Shown: piece by piece, positions 1 through 46,293 of the stretch | Layout of the letters: every line of letters starts with the position of its first letter | Position numbering within the stretch: the first letter of the stretch is position 1 | IMG/VR virus record: IMGVR_UViG_2925897562_000003 | DNA: 46,293 nt | Direction: 5' to 3' (one strand) | From: a virus | Lineage: Duplodnaviria > Heunggongvirae > Uroviricota > Caudoviricetes | Position numbers and translations under genes: made by a program | The notes under the pieces: generated by a model | Told to the model about the DNA's origin: nothing | Database searches by the model: none | What the model saw: only the letters and a program-made list of their open reading frames with translations

Positions 1-1209
1 ATGTCGGTTTTTCATAACTGGCTGCTTGATATCGCAAGCGGGAATTACTTTATCTACATCAAACGCCTTTCTGCAAACGACACAGGCGCAACAGGTGGCC
101 ATCAGGTCGGACTTTATATCCCCTCAAATATCGTTGAAAAGCTTTTTCCATCTATCAATCATACTCGCGAACTGAACCCTTCAGTCTTCCTTACTGCGCA
201 TGTATCATCCCATGATTGCCCTGATACCCAAGCACGCGCAATTTATTACAACAACCGTTATTTTGGTAAGACCCGAAACGAAAAAAGAATTACGCGCTGG
301 GGGAGAGGAAGTCCATTACAGAACCCTGAAAATACAGGAGCCCTCACAATTCTTGCTTTCAGGTTAAACGAACAGAACACTGACTGTTCCGAGGTAGATA
401 TATGGGTCTGCGTCAATCCCGATGAAGAGGATATCATCGAGTCTGCTATTGGCGAAATCATACCTGGAACCCTAATTTCCGGCCCTGCCGGACAAATTTT
501 GGGCGGATTGTCTCTTCAGCAAACTCCAGTAAATCATAAATATGTTATTCCTGAAGACTGGAAGAAGCGTTTTCCTTCTGGAAACGAAATTATTCAATAT
601 GCTGCTGGCCATTATGCTAAAAACTCCAAGGATCCAGATGAGCAACTGATTGACCGTCGGCGTGTCGAGTATGATATTTTTCTACTCGTCGAGGAATTAC
701 ATGTTCTTGATATTATTAAGAAAGGATTCGATTCTGTAGATGAGTTTATTGCATTAGCCAACTCTGTCAGTAATCGACGTAAATCAAGGGCAGGCAAATC
801 ACTTGAACTTCACCTAGAGAAGCTTTTTATCGAGCACGGACTACGGCATTTCTCCACTCAGGCAGTTACTGAAGGTAATAAAAAACCAGATTTCCTGTTT
901 CCTTCAGCAGAGGCATATCATAACGTTGAATTTCCTGTAGAAAACTTACGTATGCTGGCAGTAAAGACCACCTGCAAAGATCGCTGGCGTCAGATACTGA
1001 ATGAAGCAGATAAAATCCATCAGGTACATTTATTTACACTGCAAGAAGGTGTTTCTTCAGCACAATACCGAGAAATGAAAGATGCGGGTGTCAGACTCGT
1101 TGTACCATCAACTTTACATAAAAAATACCCAGAAGCAGTTAGAGAAGAATTAATAACGCTCGGAGCATTCATTACTGAGCTGATAGAGCTTTACGCTGAA
1201 CTATCATAG
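1..1209 (+). CDS. ecoRIIR: Type II (IIE) restriction endonuclease, EcoRII-like
   Basis: 402-aa ORF starting at window position 1; N-terminus MSVFHNWLL...YIKRLSANDTGATGGHQVGLYIP matches my recollection of R.EcoRII (about 404 aa); convergent with a Dcm-like methyltransferase 35 bp downstream. Confidence 0.8.
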   Translation: MSVFHNWLLDIASGNYFIYIKRLSANDTGATGGHQVGLYIPSNIVEKLFPSINHTRELNPSVFLTAHVSSHDCPDTQARAIYYNNRYFGKTRNEKRITRWGRGSPLQNPENTGALTILAFRLNEQNTDCSEVDIWVCVNPDEEDIIESAIGEIIPGTLISGPAGQILGGLSLQQTPVNHKYVIPEDWKKRFPSGNEIIQYAAGHYAKNSKDPDEQLIDRRRVEYDIFLLVEELHVLDIIKKGFDSVDEFIALANSVSNRRKSRAGKSLELHLEKLFIEHGLRHFSTQAVTEGNKKPDFLFPSAEAYHNVEFPVENLRMLAVKTTCKDRWRQILNEADKIHQVHLFTLQEGVSSAQYREMKDAGVRLVVPSTLHKKYPEAVREELITLGAFITELIELYAELS

Positions 1210-1214
1210 GCTGA

Positions 1215-1237
1215 CTCCCGGCTTAAAAGGCCGGGAG
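1215..1237. terminator. Hairpin between convergent R and M genes (CTCCCGGC-ttaaaag-GCCGGGAG); no clear U-tract on either side
   Basis: Perfect 8-bp inverted repeat read directly between the R stop (1207-1209) and M stop (1244-1246). Confidence 0.35.
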
Positions 1238-1243
1238 ATGTTC

Positions 1244-2677
1244 TCAAGGCTGCCCAGTCTTACCAGCATCAGCAGAAACAGCTTTGAGGATATAGGGTTC
1301 CAGAAGTCTGGCAACAGCTTCAAATACTGGCACCACAACTGAGTTACCGAACTGCCGATATGACTGAGTATCTGAAACCGGAATACGGAATGGTTTCCCT
1401 CCAGGTTTTTCAAATCCCATAAGGCGTGCGCACTCTCGGGGAGTCAGCCTGCGTGGTCGACGAGCCTGATTACTCTCATTCATAAAGTCAGCCTCTCCCG
1501 TTGCCATATCCCAACCACGATCAATAAGAATTTCTGATCCGTCTTTGTGATATCTGGCAGAAAGTGTGCGTGCAATGCTTTCCTTATTCTCAGGATTGAC
1601 CAACCCAAAGCCAAAACCATTCCCCTTGGCTGCATGCTTTTTGGCGTAGTTATAAAGGTACTCCCATAGTTTTGGCGTAAGTATATATTTACTGTCGACT
1701 ACAGGCTCCAGCAATTCACCAAATGATGGGCGGTGTTCCGGATAAAAACGACTGATATCACGCAAGGTAAACCCCTTGTGAATATTCAGATCTCGTCTAA
1801 ATCCGACCAGAACAATACGTTCACGATGCTGAGGCAAAAAATGCTTCCCATCGATAATCTTTGGATCGTTTTTTCCCATTTCTGCAGCATCGGCAACTTC
1901 GTAGCCCAGCTCGTCAAGGGTCTCCATAATGACTTTGAAAGTTTTACCCTTATCATGGCTCTTCAGATTTTTGACATTTTCCAGCACAAAAATTGCCGGT
2001 TTTTTTGCTCGTATAATACGTGCCACGTCAAAAAAAAGTGTTCCTTGTGCTTCACATTCAAAACCATGCGCACGACCAAGTGAGTTTTTCTTACTAACAC
2101 CAGCAAGGCTAAATGGCTGGCACGGGAACCCCGCAAGAAGCACATCATGATCCGGCACATGCTCATCAATATATGCATAAGCATCCGTTTCCAATACATC
2201 GGTTTTATCACTCAGCGTGACTTCCCGAATATCGAGATTGAATTTATGCACCTGTTCATCGTTAAACCAGTTGGCCTTGTATGTACGCACAGCATCTTTA
2301 TTCCATTCACTGGTAAAAACACACTGGCCTCCAATGGCCTCAAAACCTTTCCGTATCCCTCCAATTCCAGCAAATAAGTCAATGAAGCGGAAAGCATATT
2401 CCGGATGGTTTGCAGGTGGTTCTGGTAGCATCTTACGCAGAAGAGACTCTTCTACTGAAGTCAACGATTTTGGTAAACACTTGCCATTAATCCAGCGGTT
2501 AATGGTTTCACGGCTCCACTCATTTTTTCCGACTTTTCTCAGTAATTCAGCCACATACTTCTGATCATAGATTTCCAGCACTTTCTCGATAAGCTTTTTA
2601 TCATTTTCCTGTCGCAGCTTTTCTTCCGCCTCGGCTTCCTTCAGCAGATGCTGTGCCAACACTTCAAATTCAGACAT
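1244..2677 (-). CDS. ecoRIIM: DNA cytosine-5 methyltransferase, Dcm / M.EcoRII-like (CCWGG family)
   Basis: Motifs FAGIGG, PCQPFS, ENVKNL, QFGNSV and near-identity along its length to my recollection of E. coli Dcm; ATG at 2677 gives 477 aa (ORF track begins 14 codons upstream at 2719). Confidence 0.9.
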
Positions 2678-3038
2678 AATTCCTCCAAGGGGTCTAATGG
2701 GTGAAACTTTATCACTCATTCAACCCAGAAGGAAATGTTTTATCTGGATATTTAAACAGTGACTACAACGTAATCTAGCACTGGTGATGCTTTGTTAGGC
2801 ATAGAGAATCATTCTATATACGACTAATGACAGAAAAACAGCAGACAAGTAGTTTGTTCATAAATTAACGCATACTATGTGTCTACGGTTTTCGAGACCG
2901 GTCCAATCATCAAACGAAACATAAAATTAGCTCACATTATGAGGAAAAGTATCTTTTTTGTACTATGTAAATTCAAAGGCTTAGCCTCATTTCTCCGATG
3001 GTTTTCTCAACACTACTGGTTGTGAGCCCTTGCAATGA

Positions 3039-3857
<819 letters not shown>

Positions 3858-4511: not shown

Positions 4512-7471
4512 TATGCAAGCCTCACAATATAGTTAAATGCGATGTTTTTGACGGTGTTTTCCGCGTTACCAGCAGCGTTAACGGTGATGGTGTGTCCATG
4601 TGAACCAATCGCAACGGAGTGCGTATGAGCACCAATACCGACAGTATGCGCGTGTGCACCTGCAGATGCTGCTGTGCCGGACAGTGAATGGCTATGATTA
4701 CCATCTGTACTGGTATTCGCTAACCACCCCGTAGACATACCTACTGAGCCTTGTACACCCCAGGTATTTTGACCTGAGCTTGTATAACCATATTGATAAG
4801 TATCTTTAAAAACACTGGGGTTAAATCGACGGCCATCTCTATGGCTGTGATTACCAGCTGCATTCGTGCTGCCACTTAAACTATGGGTATGCGCACCAGT
4901 GTTATTCGTGGATTTAGTGCCGTAATCAAACGACGATGTGGTTTTCGTCCCCAAATCCGTACTGGATGCGCTGGCGCTGTGGGTATGCGATTTAATGCCG
5001 TCCTGTTCCTGAGACAATACGGCCCGACCACTGGCAGGTTTGCCCTTAATCGTCCAGCCACGCATATCAGGGATCACGCCTGACGGATAAGCGGCTGCAA
5101 GTTTCGGGTATGCAGATTTGTCAAAAGTCTGCCCCTGCATCAGGGCATAGCCAGACGGAACGGTATCTGATGGCCACGGGATTGGTGCGCCAGGCGGATA
5201 AAACTGCTCTGATGGCGTATAGAGTGAATAAACTGTACCGTCCGTTAACCCTTCCGGCTTATTAGCAGAATATGCTGGTGACGTATGAATCGTCACGCTG
5301 GCATTACTGGTATAATCCCATTGAATATTTACACCAGTCGCATAATTTCCGATTGCAACGTAAATATCGTAAGTATCACCAGATGTATTGACCCAGGCAA
5401 AATTTGTAAACCCTGTCGATGTGCGCTGCCATAAAGCACCAGTAATCCCCTTCGGATTACCATTACCTGCACGTAAAACAAGTTCAGATATACCTGCCTG
5501 TTGAGGTGACCCCACGTTAAATCCAGCGCCACCAATCAACGTAATTGAAACAACAGAACTCGCCTGTGGCATGGTTACCGTTGCTAATTTGAACCAACCA
5601 GCACCACCGCTGAATGACATTGTTGTTGAGTTAAGCGTACCAATATCTTTCGGCGTCAGTGTTATATCCGCTGAAAGCGCCTTACCATTCACCTTACGGG
5701 CAGAAGGTACCCGACCATTCGCATTGTCATTAGCTGCTTTCACTGCTTTCGGTGTCGCAGCAAGCGTTTCAGATGTGCTGTTGGTTGCACTACTGAGCTG
5801 GACAATTCCTTTTTGTGCTGTCGTAGCGTCCTGTGCGGTGTATTTCCCGTTAGCCAGGTCATACGCGGCCTTAACGGCTTTTGGCGTTGCCGCCTGTGAC
5901 TCGGAAGTGCTGTTAGTCGCACTGCTGAGCTGAACTATCCCTTTCTGTGCTGTCGTTGCATCCTGTGCGGTGTATTTCCCGTTAGCCAGGTCATACGCGG
6001 CCTTAACGGCTTTTGGCGTTGCCGCCTGTGACTCGGAAGTGCTGTTGGTCGCACTGCTGAGCTGTACTATCCCCTTTTTCGTCGTGCTCGCATCCTCAAG
6101 CGCCACGGCGGATGCAATATCCTCTGCCCGTTTTGCTGCTGTCTCGGCGCGCGTTGCCGCGGATTCCGCCGTACTTTTGCTCTGTGCTGCCGCTGCCGCA
6201 CTGCCAGCAGCCTCTGTCGCCTTCGTGGATGCCGTCGTGGCGCTGCCCCTCGCTGCTGACGCCTGTCTGGTCGCCTCATCTTTTGAAGCAGACGCAGATG
6301 ATGCCGATGACGCCGCCGAACTGGCGGACGATGCGGCAGCCGTTTTTGAGGATTCTGCGCTGGTTTCCGACGCTTTCGCGTTCGTTTCGGATGTCTTCGC
6401 TGCGGAAGCAGACCTCGCTGCTGCGCTGGCCTGTTCAGTGGCTTCGCCAGCCTTCGTTGTGGCTGTTGAAGCGGATGATGCGGCGCTTTCTGCCGATTTT
6501 CCGGCGGCGGTGGCACTGACTGCTGCCTCCTCTGCCTTAATGGACGCCTCACGGGCCGATGATGCAGCTGCTGTCTCAGAGTCTGCCGCAGCTGAGGCGC
6601 TCTGTTCCGCTGCCGTTTCAGAAGACCTGGCATTCGTCTCGGACGTTTTTGCCGCCTTCACGGAATTTCCTGCCGCCGTTGCCGAGGAGGCTGCACTGCT
6701 GGCGCTTGTGGAGGCGTTCGTTTCTGATGATTTTGCCGCCTCTTTGGAGGCCGCCGCATCTCTGGCTGAAGTGGCGGCTTCTGACGCTTTCGTCGTCGCA
6801 GTGGATGCAGAAGTGGCTGCTGATTTTTGTGACGCTGCAGCATTCGTTTCTGACGTTTTCGCCGCACCGGCACTGGTGGCCGCCGCGCTTTTTGAGGACT
6901 CTGCAGCGGCAGCACTTTTTGATGCTTCAGTGGCCTTTGTTGATGCCGTTCCTGCGCTGGAAGACGCCTCCTGAGCCGAAGTCGCGGCCTGTCCGGCTGA
7001 CGTGCTGGCTGCACGCGCTGAGCCTGCAGCATCAGTCGCATGGGTTGCCGCCTCACGGGCAGATGTGCCGGCATCACTGGCTGACTTCTTCGCGGCTGCC
7101 GTGTTCTGTGCCACCGCGGACGCGTTACGCGCCACCTCTTCCACCATCAGTTCAAAACGGCGCAGAGCCTCAGGACGGGCATCATCCTCTGTCATGGCAC
7201 CGAGAAAATCATTCAGCGTACCGGGTTGAGAATCTTCATACACGGTAATGGTCCCGGCATGTGATGGCGGGAATCCCTCCACCAACAGACTGACGCTGTA
7301 CTGACCATACTCGACGTCCATTGTGTAACGCCCGGCTTCATCCGGGTTTTCTGAGGCCACTGTGTTCACCACCACCGTGGTGCTGTTGCGCCTGGCCTTT
7401 AGCTGAATGGTGCAGTTTTGTATCGGCTTACCTGCGCCATCTTTCAGTACACCTGAAATCCGTACTGCCAT
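4511..7471 (-). CDS. stf: Side tail fiber protein (lambda Stf-like) with expanded repeat region
   Basis: N-terminus [26 protein letters not shown] and C-terminal His-rich GAHTHS/HSH repeats match lambda Stf; Ala/Ser/Thr-rich central region; three 44-aa repeats [15 protein letters not shown]... Confidence 0.85.
5730..6125. repeat. Tandem 132-bp direct repeats (about three copies, first copy diverged) inside stf
   Basis: Identical blocks ...tagccaggtcatacgcggccttaacggcttttggcgttgccgcctgtgactcggaagtgctgtt... begin at 5851 and 5983 (period 132 bp). Confidence 0.7.
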
Positions 7472-7482
7472 ATTCCCCCCAC

Positions 7483-7509
7483 AAAAAAGCCCGCCTGAAC
7501 CGGCGGGCT
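7483..7509 (-). terminator. Rho-independent terminator downstream of lom (stem AGCCCGCC/GGCGGGCT then T-tract on minus strand)
   Basis: 8-bp perfect stem with 6-nt loop followed on the minus strand by TTTTTTGT; lies between the lom stop and the stf start. Confidence 0.5.
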
Positions 7510-7535: not shown

Positions 7536-8135
7536 TCAGAATTTATAACCGACACCAACGATGAAACTGTTGGTACGCCAGTCACCGCTGCCGGAGCCTT
7601 CATAAGCAATATCAATGGCCACGGATTCGGTCGGGTTAAACTGCACGCCAGCTCCCCACGCCAGAGACGTGTTGCTGTGGCGACCGTCATCACTTCCGGT
7701 CAGCACGTCGTGCGTTTTCCCCTTGTTGTCAGTTACGCGGAGATAATCCCCGGAGAAAGTCGACACACGGCTGTAAGCCACACCCGCCATCGCATACGCG
7801 CTGAACCATTCATTCACGCGCACAGACGGCCCCGCCATTACGCTGAACCAGCGGTTACGAACGGAATCTTCATGCCAGCGAGTATCGCTGTAATGGGTCA
7901 GCTGGCGATTCTTGTCTCCTGCATAGCTGAATGACGTCACCAGCCCCAGCGTATCCGTAAACTCATAACGGTATTTCACGTTAATCCCGTTCAGATCATC
8001 ACTGCCGGGAACGTTGGTCCGGGCATGAAGATACCCCGCGCTCAGCGTGGACTGATGTTCAGACGCCCATGCAGGCGCACCGGATACGGCCAGACAAATG
8101 GCTGCGGACAAAATGGCGGCACAAACTTTACGCAT
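7536..8135 (-). CDS. lom: Lom/Ail-family outer membrane beta-barrel protein
   Basis: 199 aa with signal peptide, C-terminal GYKF; position between J and stf as in lambda. Confidence 0.85.
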   Translation of the reverse strand: MRKVCAAILSAAICLAVSGAPAWASEHQSTLSAGYLHARTNVPGSDDLNGINVKYRYEFTDTLGLVTSFSYAGDKNRQLTHYSDTRWHEDSVRNRWFSVMAGPSVRVNEWFSAYAMAGVAYSRVSTFSGDYLRVTDNKGKTHDVLTGSDDGRHSNTSLAWGAGVQFNPTESVAIDIAYEGSGSGDWRTNSFIVGVGYKF

Positions 8136-8205: not shown

Positions 8206-11200
8206 TCAACGAATACTGATGCCGGAAGCCGCTTTTTTGGTCACAATCACCGTACAGTCGGTGATATTGCCTGCCCCCTGATTGCCTTTCTGGAAAATCT
8301 TAAACTCCAGAGTGACGCTACCACCACCACTAGGCATATCAATAACTGCACTGTAACTACCGGGAATGGCCCCTTTAGTTTCTCTGGATGCGATTAATAC
8401 GCCGTTTTTGCGAACTTCAAAACCATAACCCGTGTATCGCGTGCCTCCCGGGTTATTTCCGCTCCCCGGATCGTCATACGCTATACCGTTAAAAATAATG
8501 GGCGGAATAATAATCTGGCGGTCAAAGTTATGATCATCGCTGATGGTGACTGTAACCGTACCGTTTGGTGTTTCCGTGTTACCCCACGTACCGACTTTTT
8601 TCGGGAAGGCTTTTGATACAGCTTTAACGAAATCTCCTCTGACCTGGGTCGCCTCCAGCATGCCCTTAATCGTACAGTTCTGGTTAATCGTGACATTGTT
8701 GAGCGTTCCTGAGTTCGCATTCACACTGCCACTGATATCCGCATTTTTCGCCGTCAGTCTCCCGTCTGATGTCAGGGAAAATGCCGGAGGATTACCGCCG
8801 CTGGTAATGGTGGGGGCCGTCAGGCGTTTCAGGAACACTTCATTCATGAATATCTGATCGCCCTGACCAACAAACATCGGCTTTGTGTTGCCATTCGCAG
8901 GATTAATCATCGCAATCCTGTCTGCTGCCAGCAGCACCTGACTCTGCATGCCGTCAGGGGTGTTCTCAATACCGGCACCGATACCCGCAATATAAAGGCG
9001 TCCGTCCTGCATCTGCTGCAGCTTCACTGCCCACATGCTGTTCAGGTTATTATTTGTATCAACCTGAACCTTCTGTATCTGCTGGATCGCTGCACTCTGG
9101 TCTTCCAGTTTCTTATTGACGGTCTGTGTTATTTCATTGCTGACATCCGTTATGGACGTCCTGATTTCAGTCAGGTCAGGCGCAAGCTGACCGTTATCAA
9201 TCTGCGTCCACAGCTCCTGAGCCAGATGGGTTTTCCCTATCTCGCCTTTGAAAAAATCCAGATAGCCTGATGCATCATCACTCGGCTGACCGACAGCCTC
9301 CACGAATGCCGATTTGCCAACGGTGTTCACACTGCGAACGTAAAAATAATAATCATGGCCCGGTTTGATATTGATACTGGCGGCTATCCAGTACAGTGCC
9401 GTACCAAGATAACGCGCGCTGGTTTCAACCTGCCTGATATCCGCAATCCGTTTTTCCGAGAACCAGAACTCAAACTGTACCGTCGGGTCATAAACCGCAA
9501 GATGCGGCGTGGCGGTTATCTGAAAATAGCCCGGCGTCAGCTCAATCCGCGACGGCGCTGCCGGTGCGGCAATCCGGAACGATACCGACGCCGGATCGCC
9601 CTGCTGCCCCCACGCATTTACTGCCCGGACTGTCAGCCTGTAGTTCCCCAGAGCCAGTTGTGTGAAGCGGTAAGTGGTTTCCGTCGTCCGGGCCGTGCTG
9701 ACCAGCCGCTCACGGCCGTCATCCGCTGCCACGGTCAGGCGAAGCAGGAAGCTCACGCCCTTCACCACCTTCGGCGTGTCCCAGCGCGCCAGCACCTGGT
9801 ATTCCCCGCTGTCTGCGGTGACTTCTGCGGTCAGGTGCTGCACCGCTGGCGGCGTGACACCATTTACCGTGCCGCTCTGGTCGCCGTCAAAGTGCGCCCC
9901 GTTATCCACGATGGCCTCTTTTTCCGGTACATGCTGCACGGCGGTGATGGCATACGTGCCGTCGTCGTTCTCACGGATACTCACGCAGCGGAACAGGCGC
10001 TGGCGCAACGTCGGCAGCTTCAGCCCCCATACGCTGTATTCAGCAACGCCGTCAGGAACACGGCTCACTTTCACCTTCACGCCGTCGGTGACGGACTGAA
10101 CCTCCACGCTGACCGGACTCCCCTGCCCGTCAACCAGGCTTATCAGCGTGGTGCCGGAAGATGGCAGCGTGATTTCACGGTCGAGCGTCAGCGTCCGGGT
10201 CTGGCTGTTTACCGCCAGCACGCGCCCGCCGGTGCGGATACCGGCATAGTCATCATCGCAGATTTCAATGACATCGCCCGGTACATGGCGAAGCCCTTCG
10301 GCACCCACGCTGAAGTCCACGGTCTGCGTTTCCAGCAGTTCTGTTTTAATCAGCCACAGCCCGGCGCGGTGTGCCTGCCCCCGGCTGGTACAGCCAAAAG
10401 CATCCATCTTCGTGACGTTACGACCGTAACGGGCAATGGCCTGCGTGTCCTCCACAAGCTCTGTCGCCGTCTCCCAGCCGTTATTCGGGTCAATCCAGTT
10501 CACCTCAACGGCATTATGGCGGTCCTTCAGGGCGCTGAAGCTGTAGCGGAACGGCGCACCATCATCCGGCATCACCACATTACTGCGGTTATAGGTCCAC
10601 ACCTTATCCGACGGTCGGTCCTGCACGAACGTCAGCGTCTGCCCGTTCCATACCGGCATACAGCGCATCGCAGAGCAGAAATCACTGAGCACATCCCACG
10701 CCTTGCGCTGTGTGGTCAGGTACGCATTACAGGTGATGCGCGGCTCCGTGCCGCCAAAACCGTCCGGCACCGACTGATCGCAATGCTGGCCGATGACATA
10801 CAGCGCCCATTTGTCCACATCCGCCGCACCAAGACGTTTCCCCATGCCGTAGCGCGGATGGGTCAGCATATCCCACAGACACCAGGCCATGTTGTTGCTG
10901 TATGCTGGCTTAAACGTTCCGTCCCAGATACCGCTGTATTGCCGCGTCTGCGGGTTATAGTTCGACGGCACCTGCAGAATGCGCCCGCGAAGATGATAAT
11001 TACGGCTCACCTGCTGGCTGCCGAACTGCTCCGAATCCACCTGTACGCCGACCAGTGCCGTATTCGGGTAGCCCTGTTTCACATCGATGATTTCGGTGTA
11101 TGACGACCAGAGCGTTTTGTTCTGCAGCTGGTCTGTGGTGCTGTCCGGCGTCATCCTGCGCATCCGGATATTAAACGGGCGCGGCGGCAGGTTATCCACC

Positions 11201-28682: not shown

Positions 28683-29735
28683 TTATTTCCCCACCAGCTC
28701 GTTTATCTCTTTCACTGTCTGGTTAAACCGCTCTGACTCAAGCTCAACACCTAAGGCCCGACGCCCCAGCGCCATTGCTGCTTTTATTGTGGAACCGGAT
28801 CCCATAAAAAAATCAGCAACCAGATCACCAGGTCGACTACTGGCATTGATTATTTGCCTGAGCATATCCACCGGTTTCTCACACGGATGTTTACCCGGGT
28901 AGAACTGAACGGGTTTATGCATCCAGACATCGGTATAAGGCACGGAGACTGATACGGAGAAATAGCGCCGGAGAGATTTAAACTCATCCAGCAATTCAGA
29001 ATATTTGCGATTCAGTGAATCATAAGATGCCACCAGCTGGTGGTGTGGTTGTTCCAGTTGTTGTTCCTGAAACTTCTCTGCCGCTATACGGGAAAACAGT
29101 GCCTGTAACTTCCGATAGTCAGCCTCATTCGGCAACTGCCACTGACTGGCACCAAACCAGTGGGAAACCATATTTTTCTTACCTGTGGCTTCGGCAATTT
29201 GTTTTGCCGTTATACCCAGTTCGGCACGAGCATCCCTGAAATACGATATCAGCGGTGCCATTATGTGCTGTTTGAGTTCCCTTTCTTTTGCCGCATAGCC
29301 GTCACTTTTGCCGCGATATGGCCCCTGGTAATGTTCAGCAAACAGAACGCGCTCTGTGGCAGGAAAATATGCGCGCAGACTTTCTTTATTACACCCATTC
29401 CAACGTCCGGACGGCTTCGCCCAGATGATATGGTTAAGCACGTTGAAACGTTCACGCATCATGATCTCAATATCAGATGCCAAGCGATGCCCACAGAACA
29501 GGTAAAGGCTTCCGGCAGGTTTTAACACCCGCCAGAACTGGGCCAGACAGTGGTCCAGCCACTTAAGGTAATCTTCGTCCCCTTTCCACTGATTGTCCCA
29601 ACCGTTGGGTTTCACCTTGAAGTAAGGCGGATCGGTAACAATCAGGTCAATGGAATCATCAGGCAGGGACTGAATAAAATGCAGGCAATCAGCGTTGATT
29701 AAATCAACACTGTTTATTTTTACAGTATTTTTCAT
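28683..29735 (-). CDS. Orphan DNA amino-methyltransferase (N6-adenine or N4-cytosine; DPPY motif)
   Basis: IVTDPPYF catalytic motif near the N-terminus plus C-terminal FFMGSGST AdoMet motif; no partner endonuclease adjacent. Confidence 0.8.
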
Positions 29736-30353: not shown

Positions 30354-31280
30354 ATGAAAGTTAGAAGCATAGGATTTACAATAAATAACAATAACAAAAA
30401 TATTAATACCGTTGACGTAATGAATGCTTTTATCAACGCATCAAACAGAGAACACAGTCGCACAGACTATACTCGTAAAATTCTCATTTCGGATGTGAAT
30501 GATTTCTATTATGGATTAGTTGTCACATTCAGAAACCAAAAAAAGAACTGTAAGTCGCAATTTGTTGATGGTAAATTCCAGCTTAAAATTGAAGATCTTC
30601 AAGGAAGTGACAAACTTGCTAATTTCAACTTTTTCTTAATTAAAAAATCTAATCTTTCTGGTCTCTATATGTATCACCACGGTTCATGCAGTCTGAACAC
30701 TCTCTTTTCTCATTTAGAAACAATAAGTAATGAATTTATCAGAAATCAAAATAAAGAAGAAATAAAAAAACTTGGTGATAAACCAAAACAAAAAGAAGTA
30801 ACTGCAATAAATAAAAAATACAAAGAAAGACTGACTTTCAGCCTTATGACAAATAAAAACAACATTCAGAGTGTTTTATGTCAATTCAAAGAGATTAAAA
30901 GCACAAGCTTTAAATTTAATTATATAGATTTTAAAGGTGGACCAATGACTGCGCTTGAACAATTTGTTAACACCACCACAATAGATATGAATTTTAATTC
31001 TAGCGACAGAACAAAAGTGCAACAACTATCTCAGAATCTTTCAAATATTTATAATTCTATGAGTGGAGTTGCTAAAGCACAGGTTATTGCAGTAAACCAT
31101 GCAGGAATAGAAAAAACCATTGATTTTATGAACTGCCCTGTTTTTTTTGAAACATACGATTTCGATATAATTGCCGATAAAGTCAATGGATTGACAAACG
31201 ATAATTATACAACAAACCCTGTTTTTGATATGATAAAAGAAGAAATGCTGAACGGGACGAATAAAAATGCCTTTATATGA
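30354..31280 (+). CDS. Hypothetical protein (308 aa), visibly AT-rich gene, Asn/Lys-rich; first gene of the accessory cassette
   Basis: Long uninterrupted ORF on the strand opposite to the late genes; codon usage clearly unlike the surrounding phage genes (runs such as aataacaataacaaaaatattaat). Confidence 0.6.
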   Translation: MKVRSIGFTINNNNKNINTVDVMNAFINASNREHSRTDYTRKILISDVNDFYYGLVVTFRNQKKNCKSQFVDGKFQLKIEDLQGSDKLANFNFFLIKKSNLSGLYMYHHGSCSLNTLFSHLETISNEFIRNQNKEEIKKLGDKPKQKEVTAINKKYKERLTFSLMTNKNNIQSVLCQFKEIKSTSFKFNYIDFKGGPMTALEQFVNTTTIDMNFNSSDRTKVQQLSQNLSNIYNSMSGVAKAQVIAVNHAGIEKTIDFMNCPVFFETYDFDIIADKVNGLTNDNYTTNPVFDMIKEEMLNGTNKNAFI

Positions 31281-31411
31281 ATGGCTAATAAATAAAAGAT
31301 TGAGGTATCAGTACCTTACACTGCTTGCATTCTCGATCCTGGCATTGCTTGCACTTTACCTATTGTACAGAAACACACCTAAAGTAAGTGTTAACTTTTT
31401 TGATTTTTATC

Positions 31412-32481
31412 CTTGAATTGTCAAACCAAGTGCAACGATTTTTTGAAGTAAACTTCATAAGGTGTTTTCCAACCTAAACATTTACGTGGTCGTAAATTCA
31501 GTTTATTGATCACCTGTTGAATATCAACTTCGCTCCACTGATTGATGTCTTGGTGCTTCGGAAAGTATTCACGAAGTAACCCATTTGTATTTTCATTCGT
31601 TCCCCGTGTCCACGGTTGATGCGGCTCGGGGAAGTAAAATTCTACACCCAGTGCTTCTGTTACCAAACGATGTTGGGCAAATTCTTTACCACGGTCTGGC
31701 GTAATTGACCGCAATATATGTGAATCCAGCAATTCAATCATGGCTTTTTGGACTGCTTCGGCTTTTTTGGCAGGAATTTTCTTCACCAACTCAAAACGAC
31801 TTTTGCGTTCCGTCAGCGTCAGCAAACAAGCTCCACCCGCTTTACCCAGTACGGTATCGGCTTCCCAATGTCCAAAGCGACTGCGATTTTGCGCCGAAAT
31901 GGGACGGTCGTTCAAATGGTTGGATATCTGAATTTTGCCACGTTTTTCATGATGATTTTTTGTATGCCGTGTTTTGCCTTTGTGGCGCAGTTTGCGACTG
32001 GCTTTGCGTTCGCCTATATCAAACAACCCTGAATAAATACCACGATAAATGGTTGAATAACTAATGGATAATTCAGATTTTTCCAATTTTAATCGTGCGC
32101 TGATTTGTTCGGGCGACCAGTTTTCTGTCAGAAACTTTTCTTGCACCAAATTGAAATATTCAGGCTGCTCTAATTTGCGCTGTGCTTTGCTATTTTGACG
32201 ATGCTTCAAATAGCTGTTTTGTGCGTTCGTTGCACTGTAGCTTTCTAGAGCGTGTCGTTTCAGCTCGCGAGAAATGGTGCTGGAGCTACGTCCCAGTGCT
32301 TTGGCAATTTCTGCTTGTTTTTTGCCCTGTGCGAGTAAAATCATTATCTTTTCTCGCTCGTTTATTGTAAGATGTCGGTAGGAAGTACTCATCATTTGGA
32401 AGTGGTTTTTGTGTGGAAACAAAATTATATTCTAGTTGATGAGTACTTCTTTTTTTGTTGCACTTGGATTGTAAATTCAGC
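31412..32481 (-). mobile_element. IS30-family insertion sequence (about 1.07 kb), possibly ISApl1-like
   Basis: Single transposase ORF flanked by imperfect roughly 25-bp terminal inverted repeats (left TGAATTGTCAAACCAAGTGCAAC, right reverse complement TGAATTTACAATCCAAGTGCAAC); exact ends and target duplication not resolved. Confidence 0.8.
31421..32344 (-). CDS. IS30-family transposase (DDE); 307 aa from MILLAQ, ORF track extends to 32422
   Basis: N-terminal HTH (AEIAKALGRSSSTISRELKR), catalytic region HWEADTV...TPDRGKEF...TRGTNEN typical of IS30 transposases. Confidence 0.85.
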   Translation of the reverse strand: MILLAQGKKQAEIAKALGRSSSTISRELKRHALESYSATNAQNSYLKHRQNSKAQRKLEQPEYFNLVQEKFLTENWSPEQISARLKLEKSELSISYSTIYRGIYSGLFDIGERKASRKLRHKGKTRHTKNHHEKRGKIQISNHLNDRPISAQNRSRFGHWEADTVLGKAGGACLLTLTERKSRFELVKKIPAKKAEAVQKAMIELLDSHILRSITPDRGKEFAQHRLVTEALGVEFYFPEPHQPWTRGTNENTNGLLREYFPKHQDINQWSEVDIQQVINKLNLRPRKCLGWKTPYEVYFKKSLHLV

Positions 32482-32871
32482 TCATAAAAACTTACGAGGC
32501 TATCTCTTCTCCGGTTTTATTTCCGTGGGCTCATTTTTATTGAGCCTGCATACCTTTGTCATAATAAATTTACGCGATAAGGTTTTTGCAACTCAGGAAT
32601 ATAAGGAAATTTATAGCATTGCCACTGGTATACCTATTGACAAAATCAATGATAGTGTACTTTATAAACCTTTAGACAATTTATCCTCATTTATTAATAC
32701 ATCAATATTATGTTCTATCACAACAGCAATTGCACAATTCACTATTGGGCTTTCAACTAATTTATATGCATGCTTATTTTGCGTATGGCTTGCAATACTA
32801 ACGGTATTTCTTTTATTACATTGCCTCATCATAATCAGACAAAATATTAAAATTTTATTAAAGCAACAGAG

Positions 32872-32894
32872 AAAAAAAGGGGGGTAATCCCCCC
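32872..32894 (-). terminator. Strong rho-independent terminator immediately after Q (GGGGGG-ATTA-CCCCCC then TTTTTTT on minus strand)
   Basis: Perfect 6-bp G/C stem with 4-nt loop and 7-T run, 5 nt downstream of the Q stop; the loop also holds the stop codon of the plus-strand disrupted gene. Confidence 0.6.
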
Positions 32895-35474: not shown

Positions 35475-35797
35475 ACTTTCAGGCCCCTCTCATGTAACCA
35501 GTGGGCTGCACGCAACCTGGCGTTCTCCTCACCGGCAAGCAGTGCGCGGATGATACCGACCGCCTCGCTGTCGTCGTCCTTCACCGCGATATGAAGCGTT
35601 ATCCCCCGGGCCACGCCACGCTTTATCGTGATGACACCTTTTTTCTCCAGTGCGCGAAGATGCTCCACCGCTGCATTCACTGAACGATATCCCAGCATGG
35701 TTGCCACCTCCTGATTGGTTGGCGGGAAGCCTCGTTCTTTCTGGTAAGAAATCAGCATATCCAGCACCTGCTGCTGGCATTGAGTTAATGTCGTCAT
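35471..35797 (-). CDS. LexA N-terminal DNA-binding-domain homolog lacking the S24 peptidase domain
   Basis: LTQCQQQVLDMLISYQKERGFPPTNQEVATMLGYRSVNAAVEHLRALEKKGVITIKRGVARGITL aligns by eye with the LexA N-terminal domain as recalled; protein ends at 108 aa with no Ser/Lys-dyad region. Confidence 0.6.
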   Translation of the reverse strand: MTTLTQCQQQVLDMLISYQKERGFPPTNQEVATMLGYRSVNAAVEHLRALEKKGVITIKRGVARGITLHIAVKDDDSEAVGIIRALLAGEENARLRAAHWLHERGLKV

Positions 35798-36480
35798 GCC
35801 GCCATCTCCCTGACCAGTTTTTCTGCCTGCAGGCGAACCTGCGCCAGAAAGGCCTCACCACATGCCTCAAGTTCATCACGCCCGATGTAGCTGATTGCCG
35901 GTCCCTTCCAGGTCTTGTCGAAAACAGCAATAGCACCAGCGAAGAAAGCGCCTGTCGGCACCTGCTTCTCGTCCTTCGGTATAAACCAGGCAGGCAGTTC
36001 AAAACCAATACGCCCGCGAATAAAAGCAATATGATCTGCATCTTCCGGCCACCACACTTCGCTGGTGGCCGCTTTGATCAGGAAAACATAGCGCCCGCCC
36101 TTATCACGCATGGCACTGGCATGTTTCATGATGTAACGCATGCCGGTGATGTATTGCCCCTCATGCTGACTGGCGCGGCTGTATGGGGGATTACCAAAGG
36201 CAGCACCTTTAAGCTCCGCAAGACGTTCTGACCAGTCATGCGCCAGCGCGTTATCTTCCGCCGTGTAATACGCGGCACATTTGGCGTTATCACCGTCAGT
36301 AAACAGATCCAGAACAAACGGGCCAAACAGGGTGTTAATTCCCCAGAAAATGTTGTCCGGCGTGCGCCACTGATCGCCCACTTCCTTCAGTTCATGGGCT
36401 GGTTTGTTCCGCAGTTCCACCAGCGCCTGGCAATATTTATTACTCATTAAGCCCCCACGTAATTCCCTGACAGATACCAC
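35794..36480 (-). CDS. Phage-type DNA N6-adenine methyltransferase (orphan)
   Basis: NPPY motif (FGNPPYS) and overall resemblance to phage Dam-family methyltransferases; no partner nuclease. Confidence 0.75.
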   Translation of the reverse strand: MVSVRELRGGLMSNKYCQALVELRNKPAHELKEVGDQWRTPDNIFWGINTLFGPFVLDLFTDGDNAKCAAYYTAEDNALAHDWSERLAELKGAAFGNPPYSRASQHEGQYITGMRYIMKHASAMRDKGGRYVFLIKAATSEVWWPEDADHIAFIRGRIGFELPAWFIPKDEKQVPTGAFFAGAIAVFDKTWKGPAISYIGRDELEACGEAFLAQVRLQAEKLVREMAA

Positions 36481-43584: not shown

Positions 43585-43791
43585 ATGCTGAACCTCGATT
43601 GTGTTCCAATCTCAACTTATTGCAAAGAAACTGGCGAAACTCCTGAAGCAATAAACAAACGTGTACAGCGCGGTGTTTGGCGTGAAGGTGTTCAGGTTTT
43701 AAAGGTTGAAGGCGTTAAGGAGAGGTGGATTGATCTTAGTGAGGTTGCAAAATGGGCCAGACAAAACTGCTCAAACTACCGCGCGGCGTAA
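43585..43791 (+). CDS. xis: Excisionase-like DNA-binding protein
   Basis: Small basic protein immediately upstream of and overlapping int; ATG at 43585 with GGAG RBS. Confidence 0.6.
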   Translation: MLNLDCVPISTYCKETGETPEAINKRVQRGVWREGVQVLKVEGVKERWIDLSEVAKWARQNCSNYRAA

Positions 43792-44927
43792 CAATCAGGA
43801 AACACCGCCAGGGCGAAACGATCAATATAACTTTCACCTACAAAGGAGTTAAATGTCGTGAGCCTCTTTCCAATCTGGAAGTAATACCAAAGAACATAAA
43901 ATACGCCGAGCGCACACTCGGCGAAATTCATAATAAGATCGAAAGGGGAACATTCATTTATGCGGAATATTTTCCCCGTTCTGCTCGTTTGAAAATTTTT
44001 GGTAATGCTGCTGCAGGCAAAACGGTAAAAATGTACCTGGACGAATACCTTGAAATCTGCGAAACGAGAAAACTTTCACCCTCTACGATTGGTGGTTATA
44101 AAAAATGCCGTAGTGCGTTAGCCTCACTCCACATTTGCCCTGCAAGTGAATTAACACCAGCAATCCTGAAAGCGTGGATTCAAAGCCAGAAAACGACCTT
44201 AAAAACAATTCGCAACCAGTTATCTTTCCTGCGGTCAGCACTTGATGAAGCCGTAACCGATGGGGTACTTCAAATTAACCCCGTATCGTTGGTAACTGCT
44301 TCGCGCTACCAAAGTGATAAGTCAGAAGCAGAAAGCAGCTACGTGGTTGATCCGCTATCACCAGCAGAAGTTGATGCATTACTAGCAGCAGCCGGAAACA
44401 AACAATGGGAAAATCTGTTCCGGTTCGCTATACATACAGGCCTGCGTAGTTCTGAATTATGTGCCCTTCGATGGCGTGATATCGACTTTGTTGGAAAAAC
44501 TGCCCATGTCCAGAGCGCAAGTGTTGTCGGTGTTATCAAAGGAACAAAGACAAAAGCCGGTACTCGTAAAGTTGAACTGACAGAAGAGGCAATGTTGGCG
44601 CTGATAAATCAGAAGCCATTTACATTCATGAAGGATGCTACTGTCTTTGAAGATCCAAAGACAAACAAACCGTGGGCCAGCGCCGATGCGATAAGGAAAA
44701 AAGCGTGGATACCAACCTTACGTAAAGCAGGTATCCGGTACCGTAACCCATATCAGACCAGGCATACATTCGCCACCAGCCATATCAGCCGTGGTGCGAA
44801 CCTGTTCTGGCTTGCAGGCCAGATGGGCCATAAGGGACCAGAAATGCTATTTCGTCACTATGGCAGTTACCTTGCTGCATATGACGGACATACCGCTAAA
44901 AATACTAATGATACAAAACAGGCTTGA
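43752..44927 (+). CDS. int: Tyrosine recombinase / phage integrase
   Basis: 391 aa; C-terminal catalytic region (...HTGLRSSELCALRWRDID..., ...RHTFATSHISRGANLFWLAGQMGHKGPEMLFRHYGSY) with R..HxxR..Y arrangement. Confidence 0.9.
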   Translation: MGQTKLLKLPRGVTIRKHRQGETINITFTYKGVKCREPLSNLEVIPKNIKYAERTLGEIHNKIERGTFIYAEYFPRSARLKIFGNAAAGKTVKMYLDEYLEICETRKLSPSTIGGYKKCRSALASLHICPASELTPAILKAWIQSQKTTLKTIRNQLSFLRSALDEAVTDGVLQINPVSLVTASRYQSDKSEAESSYVVDPLSPAEVDALLAAAGNKQWENLFRFAIHTGLRSSELCALRWRDIDFVGKTAHVQSASVVGVIKGTKTKAGTRKVELTEEAMLALINQKPFTFMKDATVFEDPKTNKPWASADAIRKKAWIPTLRKAGIRYRNPYQTRHTFATSHISRGANLFWLAGQMGHKGPEMLFRHYGSYLAAYDGHTAKNTNDTKQA

Positions 44928-45222
44928 TGCTGCCCGAACAAATAGCCACTGAAACCTGATAAAAAGTTATTTGTGATGTGGTTATGTTCGTCATATCCAC
45001 ATCATACATACTTAAACATAAGGCACTTTTTACCTTGCAAAAATTCGAACCAAGTATATATGTTATAGGTGAACTTGGTACTCAGGCAGCTGTCCTAGTA
45101 CTAGGAACACGCGGGAAATCTTGGAGCCAGTACGTAGATTATGGTAAAATCCCGCGCCCCGTTCTGCGGGGAGCAATAAATGCCTCAAAAGGATACATTG
45201 GGGGGACTGAAAGGAGGTCTTT

Positions 45223-45471
45223 ATGTCAGAACTAGTCATGAAGATGTTTGGGCTGAATGATTTGGTCAAAGGCGGACAAGCCATGGCCGATCGTTTGAAC
45301 AAATCTGGTGTTAAAAACATCAAGGTCGTAGGGCGTGGTGCAGTTATTGTAGACCCATCTACTGACCCAGAAAAAATCACTCAGCTTAGGAAAGCAGCTA
45401 GAAAATTCGTCGAGCAGGATGCAAAAGCTGTTGCAGCCGCTAAAGCTAACTCAATGGACAATGACGACTAA
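45223..45471 (+). CDS. Hypothetical small soluble protein (82 aa)
   Basis: Strong AGGAGGT RBS; immediately followed (3-nt gap) by the membrane protein gene. Confidence 0.5.
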   Translation: MSELVMKMFGLNDLVKGGQAMADRLNKSGVKNIKVVGRGAVIVDPSTDPEKITQLRKAARKFVEQDAKAVAAAKANSMDNDD

Positions 45472-45474
45472 CAA

Positions 45475-46293
45475 ATGTTTGCATTGCTGATCATTCCACT
45501 TTTAGTAAGTGGATCCTTACTGGTTACATCGCCCCATAACATCAAATTATTCTATCGACTCCACCGTTACGACGGCCAGCTTCTCTATATGAAGGTGGCC
45601 ACGTACGGTGTGTACTCGTTCATTGTTGCAGTCGTGCTGGCGTATGCAACCAAGTACTTTATACCAAGCCTTACACTGGTCACATGGGTATCACATCTTA
45701 TTGATGGTAGTGCAGACCCTAAAGAAAACAGGATAACATCATGGCTCATCCTGCTATCAGTGGCGACTTGTGGAGTTGCTTTTATTTGGTTGCAGATATG
45801 CAAATTTCGTATGTTTGTGGCAGCAAAAACTATTAGTTCTGCATCCAATAATGCAATTTCTATCAATTTCGCAAAGCAACTAATCAGGCTTAATGAGTTG
45901 GAAAAACTGTTGTCTGATGGCTCACTTGGTCAGCTATTCTTTGATTCAGCGACTACAAACAGACCGGTACTGATAAGCCTGAAATGCCGCAAAGTATATG
46001 TCGGAACAGTTAACATGATTAGTGAGCCAAACGAAAAACAAGGCCCTAACCTTGAAATTTCTATTAGCCCAATCATATCTGGTTACAGGGACAAGGACAC
46101 ACTAAGGGTCCTGTTTTCAAATGATTACAACGATCTTGATGGAGTTGATACCAGTATCATATTTCCATTAAGTGAGGTTTCGCATGCTTCTTGGTTCAAT
46201 ATGGATATACATGAAAAAGTAGACAATAACCGAGAGAAGAAACCAGAAACAAACCGCAAGAAAAAACGTAAATATGGCAGGACTACGAATTGA
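45475..46293 (+). CDS. Hypothetical membrane protein (N-terminal TM helices, C-terminal soluble domain with basic tail)
   Basis: 272 aa; hydrophobic segments LLIIPLLVSGSLLV, VYSFIVAVVLAYA, WLILLSVATCGVAFIWL; AT-rich codon usage; ends at the window edge. Confidence 0.55.
   Translation: MFALLIIPLLVSGSLLVTSPHNIKLFYRLHRYDGQLLYMKVATYGVYSFIVAVVLAYATKYFIPSLTLVTWVSHLIDGSADPKENRITSWLILLSVATCGVAFIWLQICKFRMFVAAKTISSASNNAISINFAKQLIRLNELEKLLSDGSLGQLFFDSATTNRPVLISLKCRKVYVGTVNMISEPNEKQGPNLEISISPIISGYRDKDTLRVLFSNDYNDLDGVDTSIIFPLSEVSHASWFNMDIHEKVDNNREKKPETNRKKKRKYGRTTN

Follow-up and report, generated by a model that had tools for sequence, protein, structure and literature searches.

We analysed a stretch of viral DNA of 46,293 nucleotides (nt; IMG/VR record IMGVR_UViG_2925897562_000003, Caudoviricetes), below called the window, with a focus on two adjacent genes at its right-hand end. 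These genes follow int, which encodes the tyrosine integrase of a lambdoid prophage inserted at ssrA, the transfer-messenger RNA (tmRNA) gene; the integrase has the Pfam domains Arm-DNA-bind_2 (1.4e-21) and Phage_integrase (1.5e-15) and bears the RefSeq name "site-specific integrase" (WP_000531797.1). The first gene of the pair encodes a soluble protein of 82 amino acids (aa) and the second a membrane protein of 272 aa. We found that the two genes are an obligate, conserved module that belongs to the phage, i.e., a self-contained accessory module ("moron") between int and the attachment (att) site in ssrA. An earlier reading made from the letters of this DNA alone (the sequence-only reading) had described much of the layout: a non-coding stretch of about 300 bp without a tRNA after int, an 82-aa open reading frame (ORF) with a strong ribosome-binding site (RBS), a 272-aa ORF with N-terminal transmembrane (TM) helices and a basic C-terminus, a pair richer in AT than the phage backbone, and a window that ends exactly at the second stop. 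All these descriptions are borne out (Table 1). The 272-aa ORF starts 3 nt past the stop of the 82-aa ORF, and the window ends with its stop codon. The GC content of the pair is 41.5%, compared to 42.7% in the spacer, 45.5% in int, 49.4% in the early region, 54.4% in the late region and 50.2% in the whole window.

Table 1. Coordinates of the two-gene module, its signals and other features discussed in the text (positions in the window).
Feature	Position	Strand	Remarks
Type II restriction endonuclease	1-1209		RefSeq annotation
DNA cytosine methyltransferase	1244-2677	-	RefSeq annotation
LEM-3-like GIY-YIG protein	3084-3857		RefSeq annotation
ISApl1-family IS30 transposase	31421-32395	-	Flanked by hypothetical genes 30354-31280 and 32429-32887
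int, tyrosine integrase of the ssrA-integrating lambdoid prophage	43752-44927	+	Context, outside the two-gene module
Spacer between int and the pair, 295 bp	44928-45222	+	Putative expression signals of the module
19-nt inverted repeat TATTTGTGATGTGGTTATG / CATATCCACATCATACATA	44968-44986 / 44992-45010		84% complementary, 5-nt loop, 40 nt past the int stop
Promoter-like TTGCAA with TATGTT	45035-45040 with 45059-45064	+	Conservation
Extended -10-like TGgTAAAAT	45142-45150	+	Conservation
Two predicted leader hairpins	~45157-45171 and 45184-45203	+	RNAalifold prediction
RBS AAGGAGG	45211-45217	+	5 nt upstream of the 82-aa ORF
Small soluble partner protein, 82 aa, isoelectric point 9.4	45223-45471	+	phrog_35771 match, conservation
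Inner-membrane protein, 272 aa	45475-46293	+	Three predicted TM helices, loop motif LHRYDGQLLYxK, predicted cytoplasmic Sm-like domain
Membrane-embedded N-terminal part	45475-45804	+	Hydropathy, charge, AlphaFold2 model
TM1, residues 1-21	45475-45537	+	
Conserved loop motif, predicted cytoplasmic, residues 28-40	45556-45594	+	
TM2, residues ~41-63	45595-45663	+	
TM3, residues ~88-110	45736-45804	+	
Predicted cytoplasmic Sm-like (LSm/Hfq/WYL-type) beta-barrel domain, residues ~150-242	45922-46200	+	
Lys/Arg-rich C-terminal tail, residues 243-272	46201-46290	+	11 K/R versus 5 D/E

The chromosome of Escherichia coli SA186 matches the window with 100% identity. The window contains a complete lambdoid prophage that has tail genes of the lambda type, a fusion of capsid protease and capsid, lysis genes, the antiterminator gene Q, an immunity region of the ymfK/ymfT/ymfL type and early genes of the yfdP/Q/R type. 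It was cut at the first and last gene of this prophage, so that its limits are the gene limits of the prediction; position 1 is the start codon of the restriction endonuclease gene. The actual ends of the prophage lie outside these limits. On the left, 235 nt separate the end of intact ssrA from position 1, and the displaced 3' core of ssrA, GGGTTCAACTCCCGCCAGCTCCACCA, is found 85-110 nt to the right of the window end (positions 9451-9476 of the right-hand genome stretch, L001), where Rfam detects a tmRNA fragment ending at the same position, 9476. An imperfect direct repeat of ~190 nt with ~93% identity is common to both ends (L003 8965-9150 versus L001 9445-9630); it covers the final 35 nt of ssrA and extends downstream as far as a hairpin terminator. 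The 3' flank of ssrA and the terminator thus seem to be present as a separate copy in the attP of the phage. The base just left of the core is G beside intact ssrA, and A both in the right copy and in attP of the Cronobacter phage phiES15; this difference fits a crossover inside the core, with the left arm of the right copy derived from the phage. It should be noted that genes 002 and 001 of phiES15, a UV-induced phage, are the same pair, at 75% nucleotide identity. They are flanked by int on one side and by the annotated attP on the other; this attP, 26 bp long, is the same ssrA core.

Thus, the prophage is integrated at ssrA, and the pair lies inside attL-attR. Because the ssrA core is located beyond the window end and phiES15 carries the pair between int and attP, the pair is phage cargo. 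The sequence-only reading had left the choice between int-proximal prophage cargo and host flanking DNA to the position of the att site; the att mapping and phiES15 uphold the former and rule out the latter. The same reading had named an outcome that would have spoken for host DNA, with the att site inside the spacer and the pair as conserved core host genes of known function; the spacer was found to hold conserved promoter-like elements and a leader instead. An att site or tRNA in the spacer was ruled out by ARAGORN, which found no tRNA in the homologous 17-kb genome stretch, and by an Rfam search at E<=1, in which the only matches were the tmRNA fragment downstream of the pair and a sub-threshold Leu-leader match that overlaps a terminator-like hairpin (L001 9605-9626) in the ssrA-downstream repeat. 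With this mapping, the right-hand limit of the ssrA prophage is also established.

Both ORFs are real genes under purifying selection: against four relatives, the proportion of nonsynonymous differences (pN) is 0.08-0.14 for both, far below that of synonymous differences (pS, 0.69-0.89). The 82-aa protein matches phrog_35771 (1.1e-45) and the 272-aa protein phrog_3630 (5.5e-82), both of unknown function. In a word-indexed database, 104 relative clusters of the membrane protein were found, all "hypothetical" and none with a Pfam domain. For the small protein, 25 close clusters were found. A full profile scan with the membrane protein gave 2,852 representatives (at 50% identity) with E<=1e-3, including 1,818 with E<=1e-10; the top 150 are all 170-354 aa long, i.e., no domain fusions are seen among them. 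The loci come from Gamma-, Beta- and Alphaproteobacteria (188 stretches from species-representative genomes) and from 185 viral contigs. We analysed 161 loci, which form 67 clusters at 70% identity. In nearly every locus, an ORF of 60-95 aa is found upstream on the same strand, and its gap to the membrane gene is mostly between -13 and +24 nt. An iterated profile and then a broader hidden Markov model (HMM) revealed that these small proteins are one family, with a core (R/K)VVGRG(T) hairpin between helices. Using the broad HMM, a homologue of the small protein was detected directly upstream in 152 of the 155 testable loci, i.e., those with enough room upstream for a small gene; it was mis-called in 2 more, and only one locus lacks it. 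The co-occurrence check that the sequence-only reading had proposed is thereby answered: the "hypothetical proteins" phrog_35771 and phrog_3630 form one obligate module. A conserved third gene was ruled out by the heterogeneity of the neighbours, since the 253 nearest neighbours represent more than 200 different Pfam families (counts 133 and 112).

In the window, the two ORFs share a reading frame and are separated only by TAA CAA before the ATG (45469-45477), so that readthrough of the stop codon would fuse them. The junction varies in the family from a 13-nt overlap to a gap of ~24 nt, and the same-frame arrangement is therefore probably incidental.

The pair is accessory and mobile. It is present in 17 of the 5,426 complete E. 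coli genomes, always on the chromosome; this rarity, the lower GC content, the upstream signals of its own, an islet in Vibrio and a variable segment in Pseudomonas all lead to the same conclusion. In Vibrio parahaemolyticus, the pair is part of an islet of three genes that has eda on one side and an oxidoreductase gene on the other, and the unannotated neighbour in this islet is 370-397 aa long, variable in length and located on the opposite strand (L171-L174, ~6300-7491). Copies of the pair in the Pseudomonas fluorescens group have 70-76% identity, compared to 83-89% in their flanks, and other variable DNA lies beside the pair. The pair adjoins int at the prophage end in the clade of the window and in phiES15, and also in Klebsiella and Enterobacter prophages that have the same YfdP/DUF2303 early region. 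An Enterobacter copy occurs at two different chromosomal sites with a related prophage, which indicates that the pair moves with the phage. Adjacency to an integrase was rejected as a general rule, since it holds only for the clade of the window and a few others.

A second recurrent position is between the P2-type replication gene gpA and the portal gene gpQ. It accounts for 21 loci in 6 sequence clusters, including membrane proteins 62-66% identical to that of the window, and independently called genes in Yersinia confirm the gpA-pair-gpQ arrangement. The gpA-gpQ interval is the old/tin hotspot of anti-phage systems (Rousset et al., PMC9122126). In Citrobacter, Salmonella and Scandinavium, IetA/IetS are immediate neighbours of the pair, the settings being a P2 hotspot and an island with a P4 integrase. 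We also scanned the two nearest ORFs on each side of the 67 non-redundant loci with the PADLOC models. Strong matches among these neighbours were IetA/IetS (two loci), JetD of Wadjet (4e-161), a CBASS cyclase (2e-107) with NucC (8e-103), AbiLi (9e-75), AbiLii, a reverse transcriptase (1e-75), AriA of PARIS (4e-40), SoFic, PDC-S45 and PDC-S04. For comparison, defence components make up only 0.41-0.65% of RefSeq proteins by such calls (10.1101/2025.01.08.631966). Hence, the defence context for which a check had been suggested is recurrent, both in the P2 hotspot and beside defence genes. We propose that the pair is a candidate anti-phage module that would act through abortive infection or exclusion, and we assign this reading a probability of roughly 0.5. 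The sequence-only reading had suggested such a role; the support that we found for it is one of context, from the hotspots and the neighbours.

Several observations concern the surroundings of individual copies. The opposite, attL-side end of the prophage in the window (1-3857, GC content 41-44.5%) carries accessory cargo beyond the tail-fibre genes, including restriction-modification genes (Table 1); together with the pair, both prophage ends carry defence-type or candidate cargo. In E. coli XD35, a second element with an integrase follows the pair (L176 7477-8706), apparently using the displaced ssrA end as its site, and an integrase is found 234 nt downstream of the pair in two IMG/VR loci as well (L085 and L087). 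Klebsiella prophages have an additional unannotated protein of 225 aa between the pair and int (L167-L170, 9285-9962). In one of them, a second integrase and a CTD1/MComp1/SMC_N trio of the conflict-system type lie beside the prophage end that bears the pair (L168 3905-7228), which shows that mobile defence-like elements are stacked at this site.

The membrane protein was characterised by hydropathy, conservation and structure prediction. The Kyte-Doolittle scan gave three hydrophobic segments, at residues 1-21, ~41-63 and ~88-110. The loop of residues 19-40 has charges of +4/-1 and the loop of residues 63-87 has +2/-3; this distribution points to an N-out/C-in topology, which would place the first loop and the C-terminal domain in the cytoplasm. 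In 48 diverse sequences, the invariant residues are L29, R31, G34 and Y38 of the loop motif LHRYDGQLLYxK, and K173, Y175, G177, P185, S202, G203 and R205 of the C-terminal domain (RKVYVG...EPxE...SGYRDKD), i.e., they cluster in exactly the two parts predicted to be cytoplasmic. The AlphaFold2 (AF2) model, built from the 48-sequence alignment, has a mean predicted local distance difference test (pLDDT) score of 82.8, with helices at residues 3-18, 34-62 and 82-123 and, after a helical linker, a beta-barrel at residues 165-240. The C-terminal tail is variable across the family alignment and has low pLDDT values (49-58). The structural matches of the model are Sm/LSm proteins, Hfq and WYL domains (DriD, PafBC, BrxR, CapW); in the Foldseek search against PDB, the top matches are Sm/LSm chains only, with weak E-values of ~1e-2, and nothing significant was found among the BFVD viral structures. 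The model shows the arrangement expected of an Sm-like fold, in which an N-terminal helix precedes a five-stranded antiparallel sheet with a strong bend, and we therefore describe the C-terminal domain as a predicted Sm-like fold. No Pfam, NCBIfam or PADLOC match to the 272-aa protein was found even at E<=1. The sequence-only reading, which did not recognise the protein, was right about a soluble C-terminal domain; the Sm-like fold and the membership in a widespread module had escaped it.

The topology bears on another explanation, classical superinfection exclusion, in which an inner-membrane protein with a small helper would block DNA injection or receptor function, with neither sensing nor cell death. 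The position of an inner-membrane protein beside int and att of temperate phages is typical of such morons: P22 SieA and HK97 gp15 are exclusion proteins, and P22 sieA, HK97 gene 15 and the gtr loci occupy similar places. However, conservation in the membrane protein is highest in the loop motif and the Sm-like domain, which are predicted to be cytoplasmic rather than periplasmic, and a family that spans Alpha-, Beta- and Gammaproteobacteria, with many copies outside prophages, fits a general mechanism better than one entry route. We consider this explanation rather improbable and retain the broader reading of the pair as a candidate anti-phage module.

For the small protein, no Pfam, NCBIfam or PADLOC family was found at threshold. 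Its AF2 model (pLDDT 62) predicts helix 3-28, strands 33-36 and 40-43 and helix 49-78, that is, a helix, a beta-hairpin around the conserved (R/K)VVGRG motif and a second helix. Such a model would fit a protein that folds only on a partner, although this is a guess. The pair might also be an addiction module of the toxin-antitoxin type, consisting of a membrane-damaging toxin and a small antitoxin, that stabilises the prophage or island rather than defends the cell. The layout is consistent with this possibility: in ~99% of loci a small upstream gene is tightly coupled to a larger gene or overlaps it, with 3 nt between the two genes in the window. Copies of the module are found on prophages, on integrative islands and in small islets. 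Of the two proteins, the small one is the faster to evolve and the harder to detect from sequence, and one locus has a HicB-like antitoxin gene nearby. On the other hand, no known toxin or antitoxin domain matches either protein, no DNA-binding domain of the kind that most type II antitoxins use for autoregulation was detected in the small protein, and the occurrence in the P2 old/tin hotspot favours defence over maintenance. We regard addiction as unlikely to be the main role; it should be noted, however, that addiction and defence are not exclusive, as many toxin-antitoxin modules act in phage defence.

The spacer was aligned for the window, phiES15, Atlantibacter, Scandinavium and IMG/VR relatives. 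The int-proximal part cannot be aligned among relatives, whereas from ~45023 on there are conserved blocks that are invariant or nearly so, and the RBS region is identical. The conserved part contains two promoter-like elements and two predicted leader hairpins, for which RNAalifold gave no double compensatory change. We can only infer promoter function, because these elements are recognised by their conservation and a strict sigma-70 scan found no site within the spacer; with this reservation, a putative independent promoter of the pair is plausible. The 19-nt inverted repeat, which is not conserved in phiES15 or other relatives, could be the int terminator or a protein-binding site. In phiES15, a clear terminator with a GC stem and a T-run directly follows the pair; no terminator was found between the pair and the att core in the E. 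coli copy. In E. coli XD35, the IS5-like insertion sequence ISEc68 is inserted in the spacer, upstream of the second promoter-like element (L176 4873-5853).

If the pair is an anti-phage module, its mode of action might be as follows. The membrane protein would oligomerise and, with its Sm-like domain, would bind a cue such as nucleic acid, a nucleotide or a phage protein, both by analogy with Sm and Hfq rings and WYL sensor domains. The membrane part would then serve as the effector, through permeabilisation, depolarisation or a block of DNA entry, and the small protein, translated together with the membrane protein, would act as its stoichiometric regulator, either an antitoxin-like inhibitor or a sensing adaptor. 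In its most specific form, this proposal states that the pair is an unrecognised and widespread anti-phage system, in which a cytoplasmic Sm/WYL-like ring senses phage nucleic acid or protein and gates its own TM pore, while the small partner holds the pore shut. We consider this specific form doubtful, and present it as one conceivable version of the defence reading.

A number of results weigh against the defence reading. Neither protein has a family among the 5,027 models of PADLOC-DB v2.0.0 at E<=1, and the accession numbers of the pair (WP_001293201.1 and WP_000457798.1) do not occur in the supplementary material of the DefensePredictor study. The family profile gave no match to PDB sequences at E<=10; the Sm-like assignment comes from a predicted model and from Foldseek matches of the strength given above, and the low-confidence model of the small protein leaves its proposed role a guess. 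Many family members are located between housekeeping genes, and defence genes are missing from the two closest positions on either side of them. Finally, the neighbour signal is uncontrolled and raw HMM matches overstate system calls, and we therefore treat this signal as a suggestive enrichment.

Some of these observations could also be explained by a role in host physiology, in which the pair would be, for instance, a small channel similar to MscS or an RNA-binding factor tethered to the membrane, and would be carried on mobile elements by chance. Three TM helices (N-out, C-in) followed by a predicted Sm-like beta domain resemble MscS channels, many loci are located between metabolic genes, and in the Pseudomonas fluorescens and oryzihabitans groups the pair is found in the same chromosomal neighbourhood in several species. 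Such a role fits the patchy distribution and the hotspot location poorly, and we consider it very unlikely. The candidate anti-phage module is the reading that we carry forward.

We found no mention of the accession numbers or of the phiES15 locus tags in the literature searched, and no description of the pair in it, nor anything relevant on Sm-like transmembrane proteins in defence; the study of E. coli prophage defence by Brenes & Laub 2025 lies outside that search. The new P4-hotspot systems of PMC13586616 have an architecture unlike that of the pair. Candidate defence systems are now numerous. A membrane-tethered Sm-like domain is unusual. If the pair protects lysogens, a large unannotated family will join the catalogue of bacterial immunity. 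An Sm-like domain is normally an RNA-binding ring or a soluble sensor, and WYL domains are ligand sensors that control defence systems; the protective pair would, to our knowledge, be the first case of an Sm-like domain fused to a membrane effector. If the proposal is true, the link between nucleic-acid sensing and membrane killing can be tested in E. coli with a 1.3-kb construct.

Elsewhere in the window, the lowest GC content (34-39%) is found at 30354-32887, between the antiterminator gene Q and the lysis genes, which is a classic late-operon position of morons; this segment includes an ISApl1-family transposase gene (Table 1). Genes of the lysogenic-conversion type are located at 7536-8135, 28683-29735 and 35794-36447; they encode an outer-membrane protein of the Ail/Lom family and two DNA methyltransferases, one beside the lysis genes and the other, an N6-adenine methyltransferase, in the early region.

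Among known systems, the closest in working principle are lambda RexAB and the gp30/31 pairs of the phages Sbash and Butters, which are prophage two-gene modules of a soluble protein and a multi-pass inner-membrane protein. RexAB and the mycobacteriophage two-gene systems have an accessory role in the life cycle of the phage; in the known cases, a membrane effector protects the lysogen. The Butters system is described in PMC7542560. The pair differs from RexAB in several respects: no homology match was found in Pfam or in PADLOC, which is believed to include Rex models; the soluble partner has 82 aa compared to ~279 aa of RexA; and the membrane protein has three predicted TM helices and a predicted cytoplasmic Sm-like domain, whereas RexB has no such domain. 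In genomic position, the pair resembles the cargo of the P2 old/tin site and the int- or att-proximal morons (gtr, sieA), although the proteins are unrelated.

The closest folds to the predicted C-terminal domain are the Sm/LSm/Hfq rings and the WYL domains. The WYL sensors BrxR, CapW, DriD and PafBC match the predicted model in fold; however, they are soluble transcription factors with a helix-turn-helix (HTH) domain, whereas the domain described here is tethered to three predicted TM helices, is not accompanied by an HTH domain and does not match Pfam WYL. Similarly, there is no sequence match to the Sm/LSm/Hfq proteins (Pfam LSM and Hfq, PDB sequences), and the protein of the pair is membrane-anchored. 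In overall architecture, the closest is MscS, with three TM helices, an N-out/C-in orientation and a cytoplasmic Sm-like beta domain; this likeness is an analogy only. The Sm-like domain of MscS (SCOP b.38.1.3) forms a heptameric ring under the pore. The membrane protein of the pair has no sequence similarity to MscS (Pfam MS_channel, PDB sequences) and does not contain the alpha-beta domain and the C-terminal barrel; neither a Pfam MS_channel match nor a structural match over TM3 and the beta domain, as expected of an MscS-type channel, was obtained, and MscS is absent among the top structural matches listed. None of these likenesses is a family assignment. The pair is a prophage-borne two-gene module with a membrane component, which is a known kind of module, built here from unrelated and unannotated protein families.

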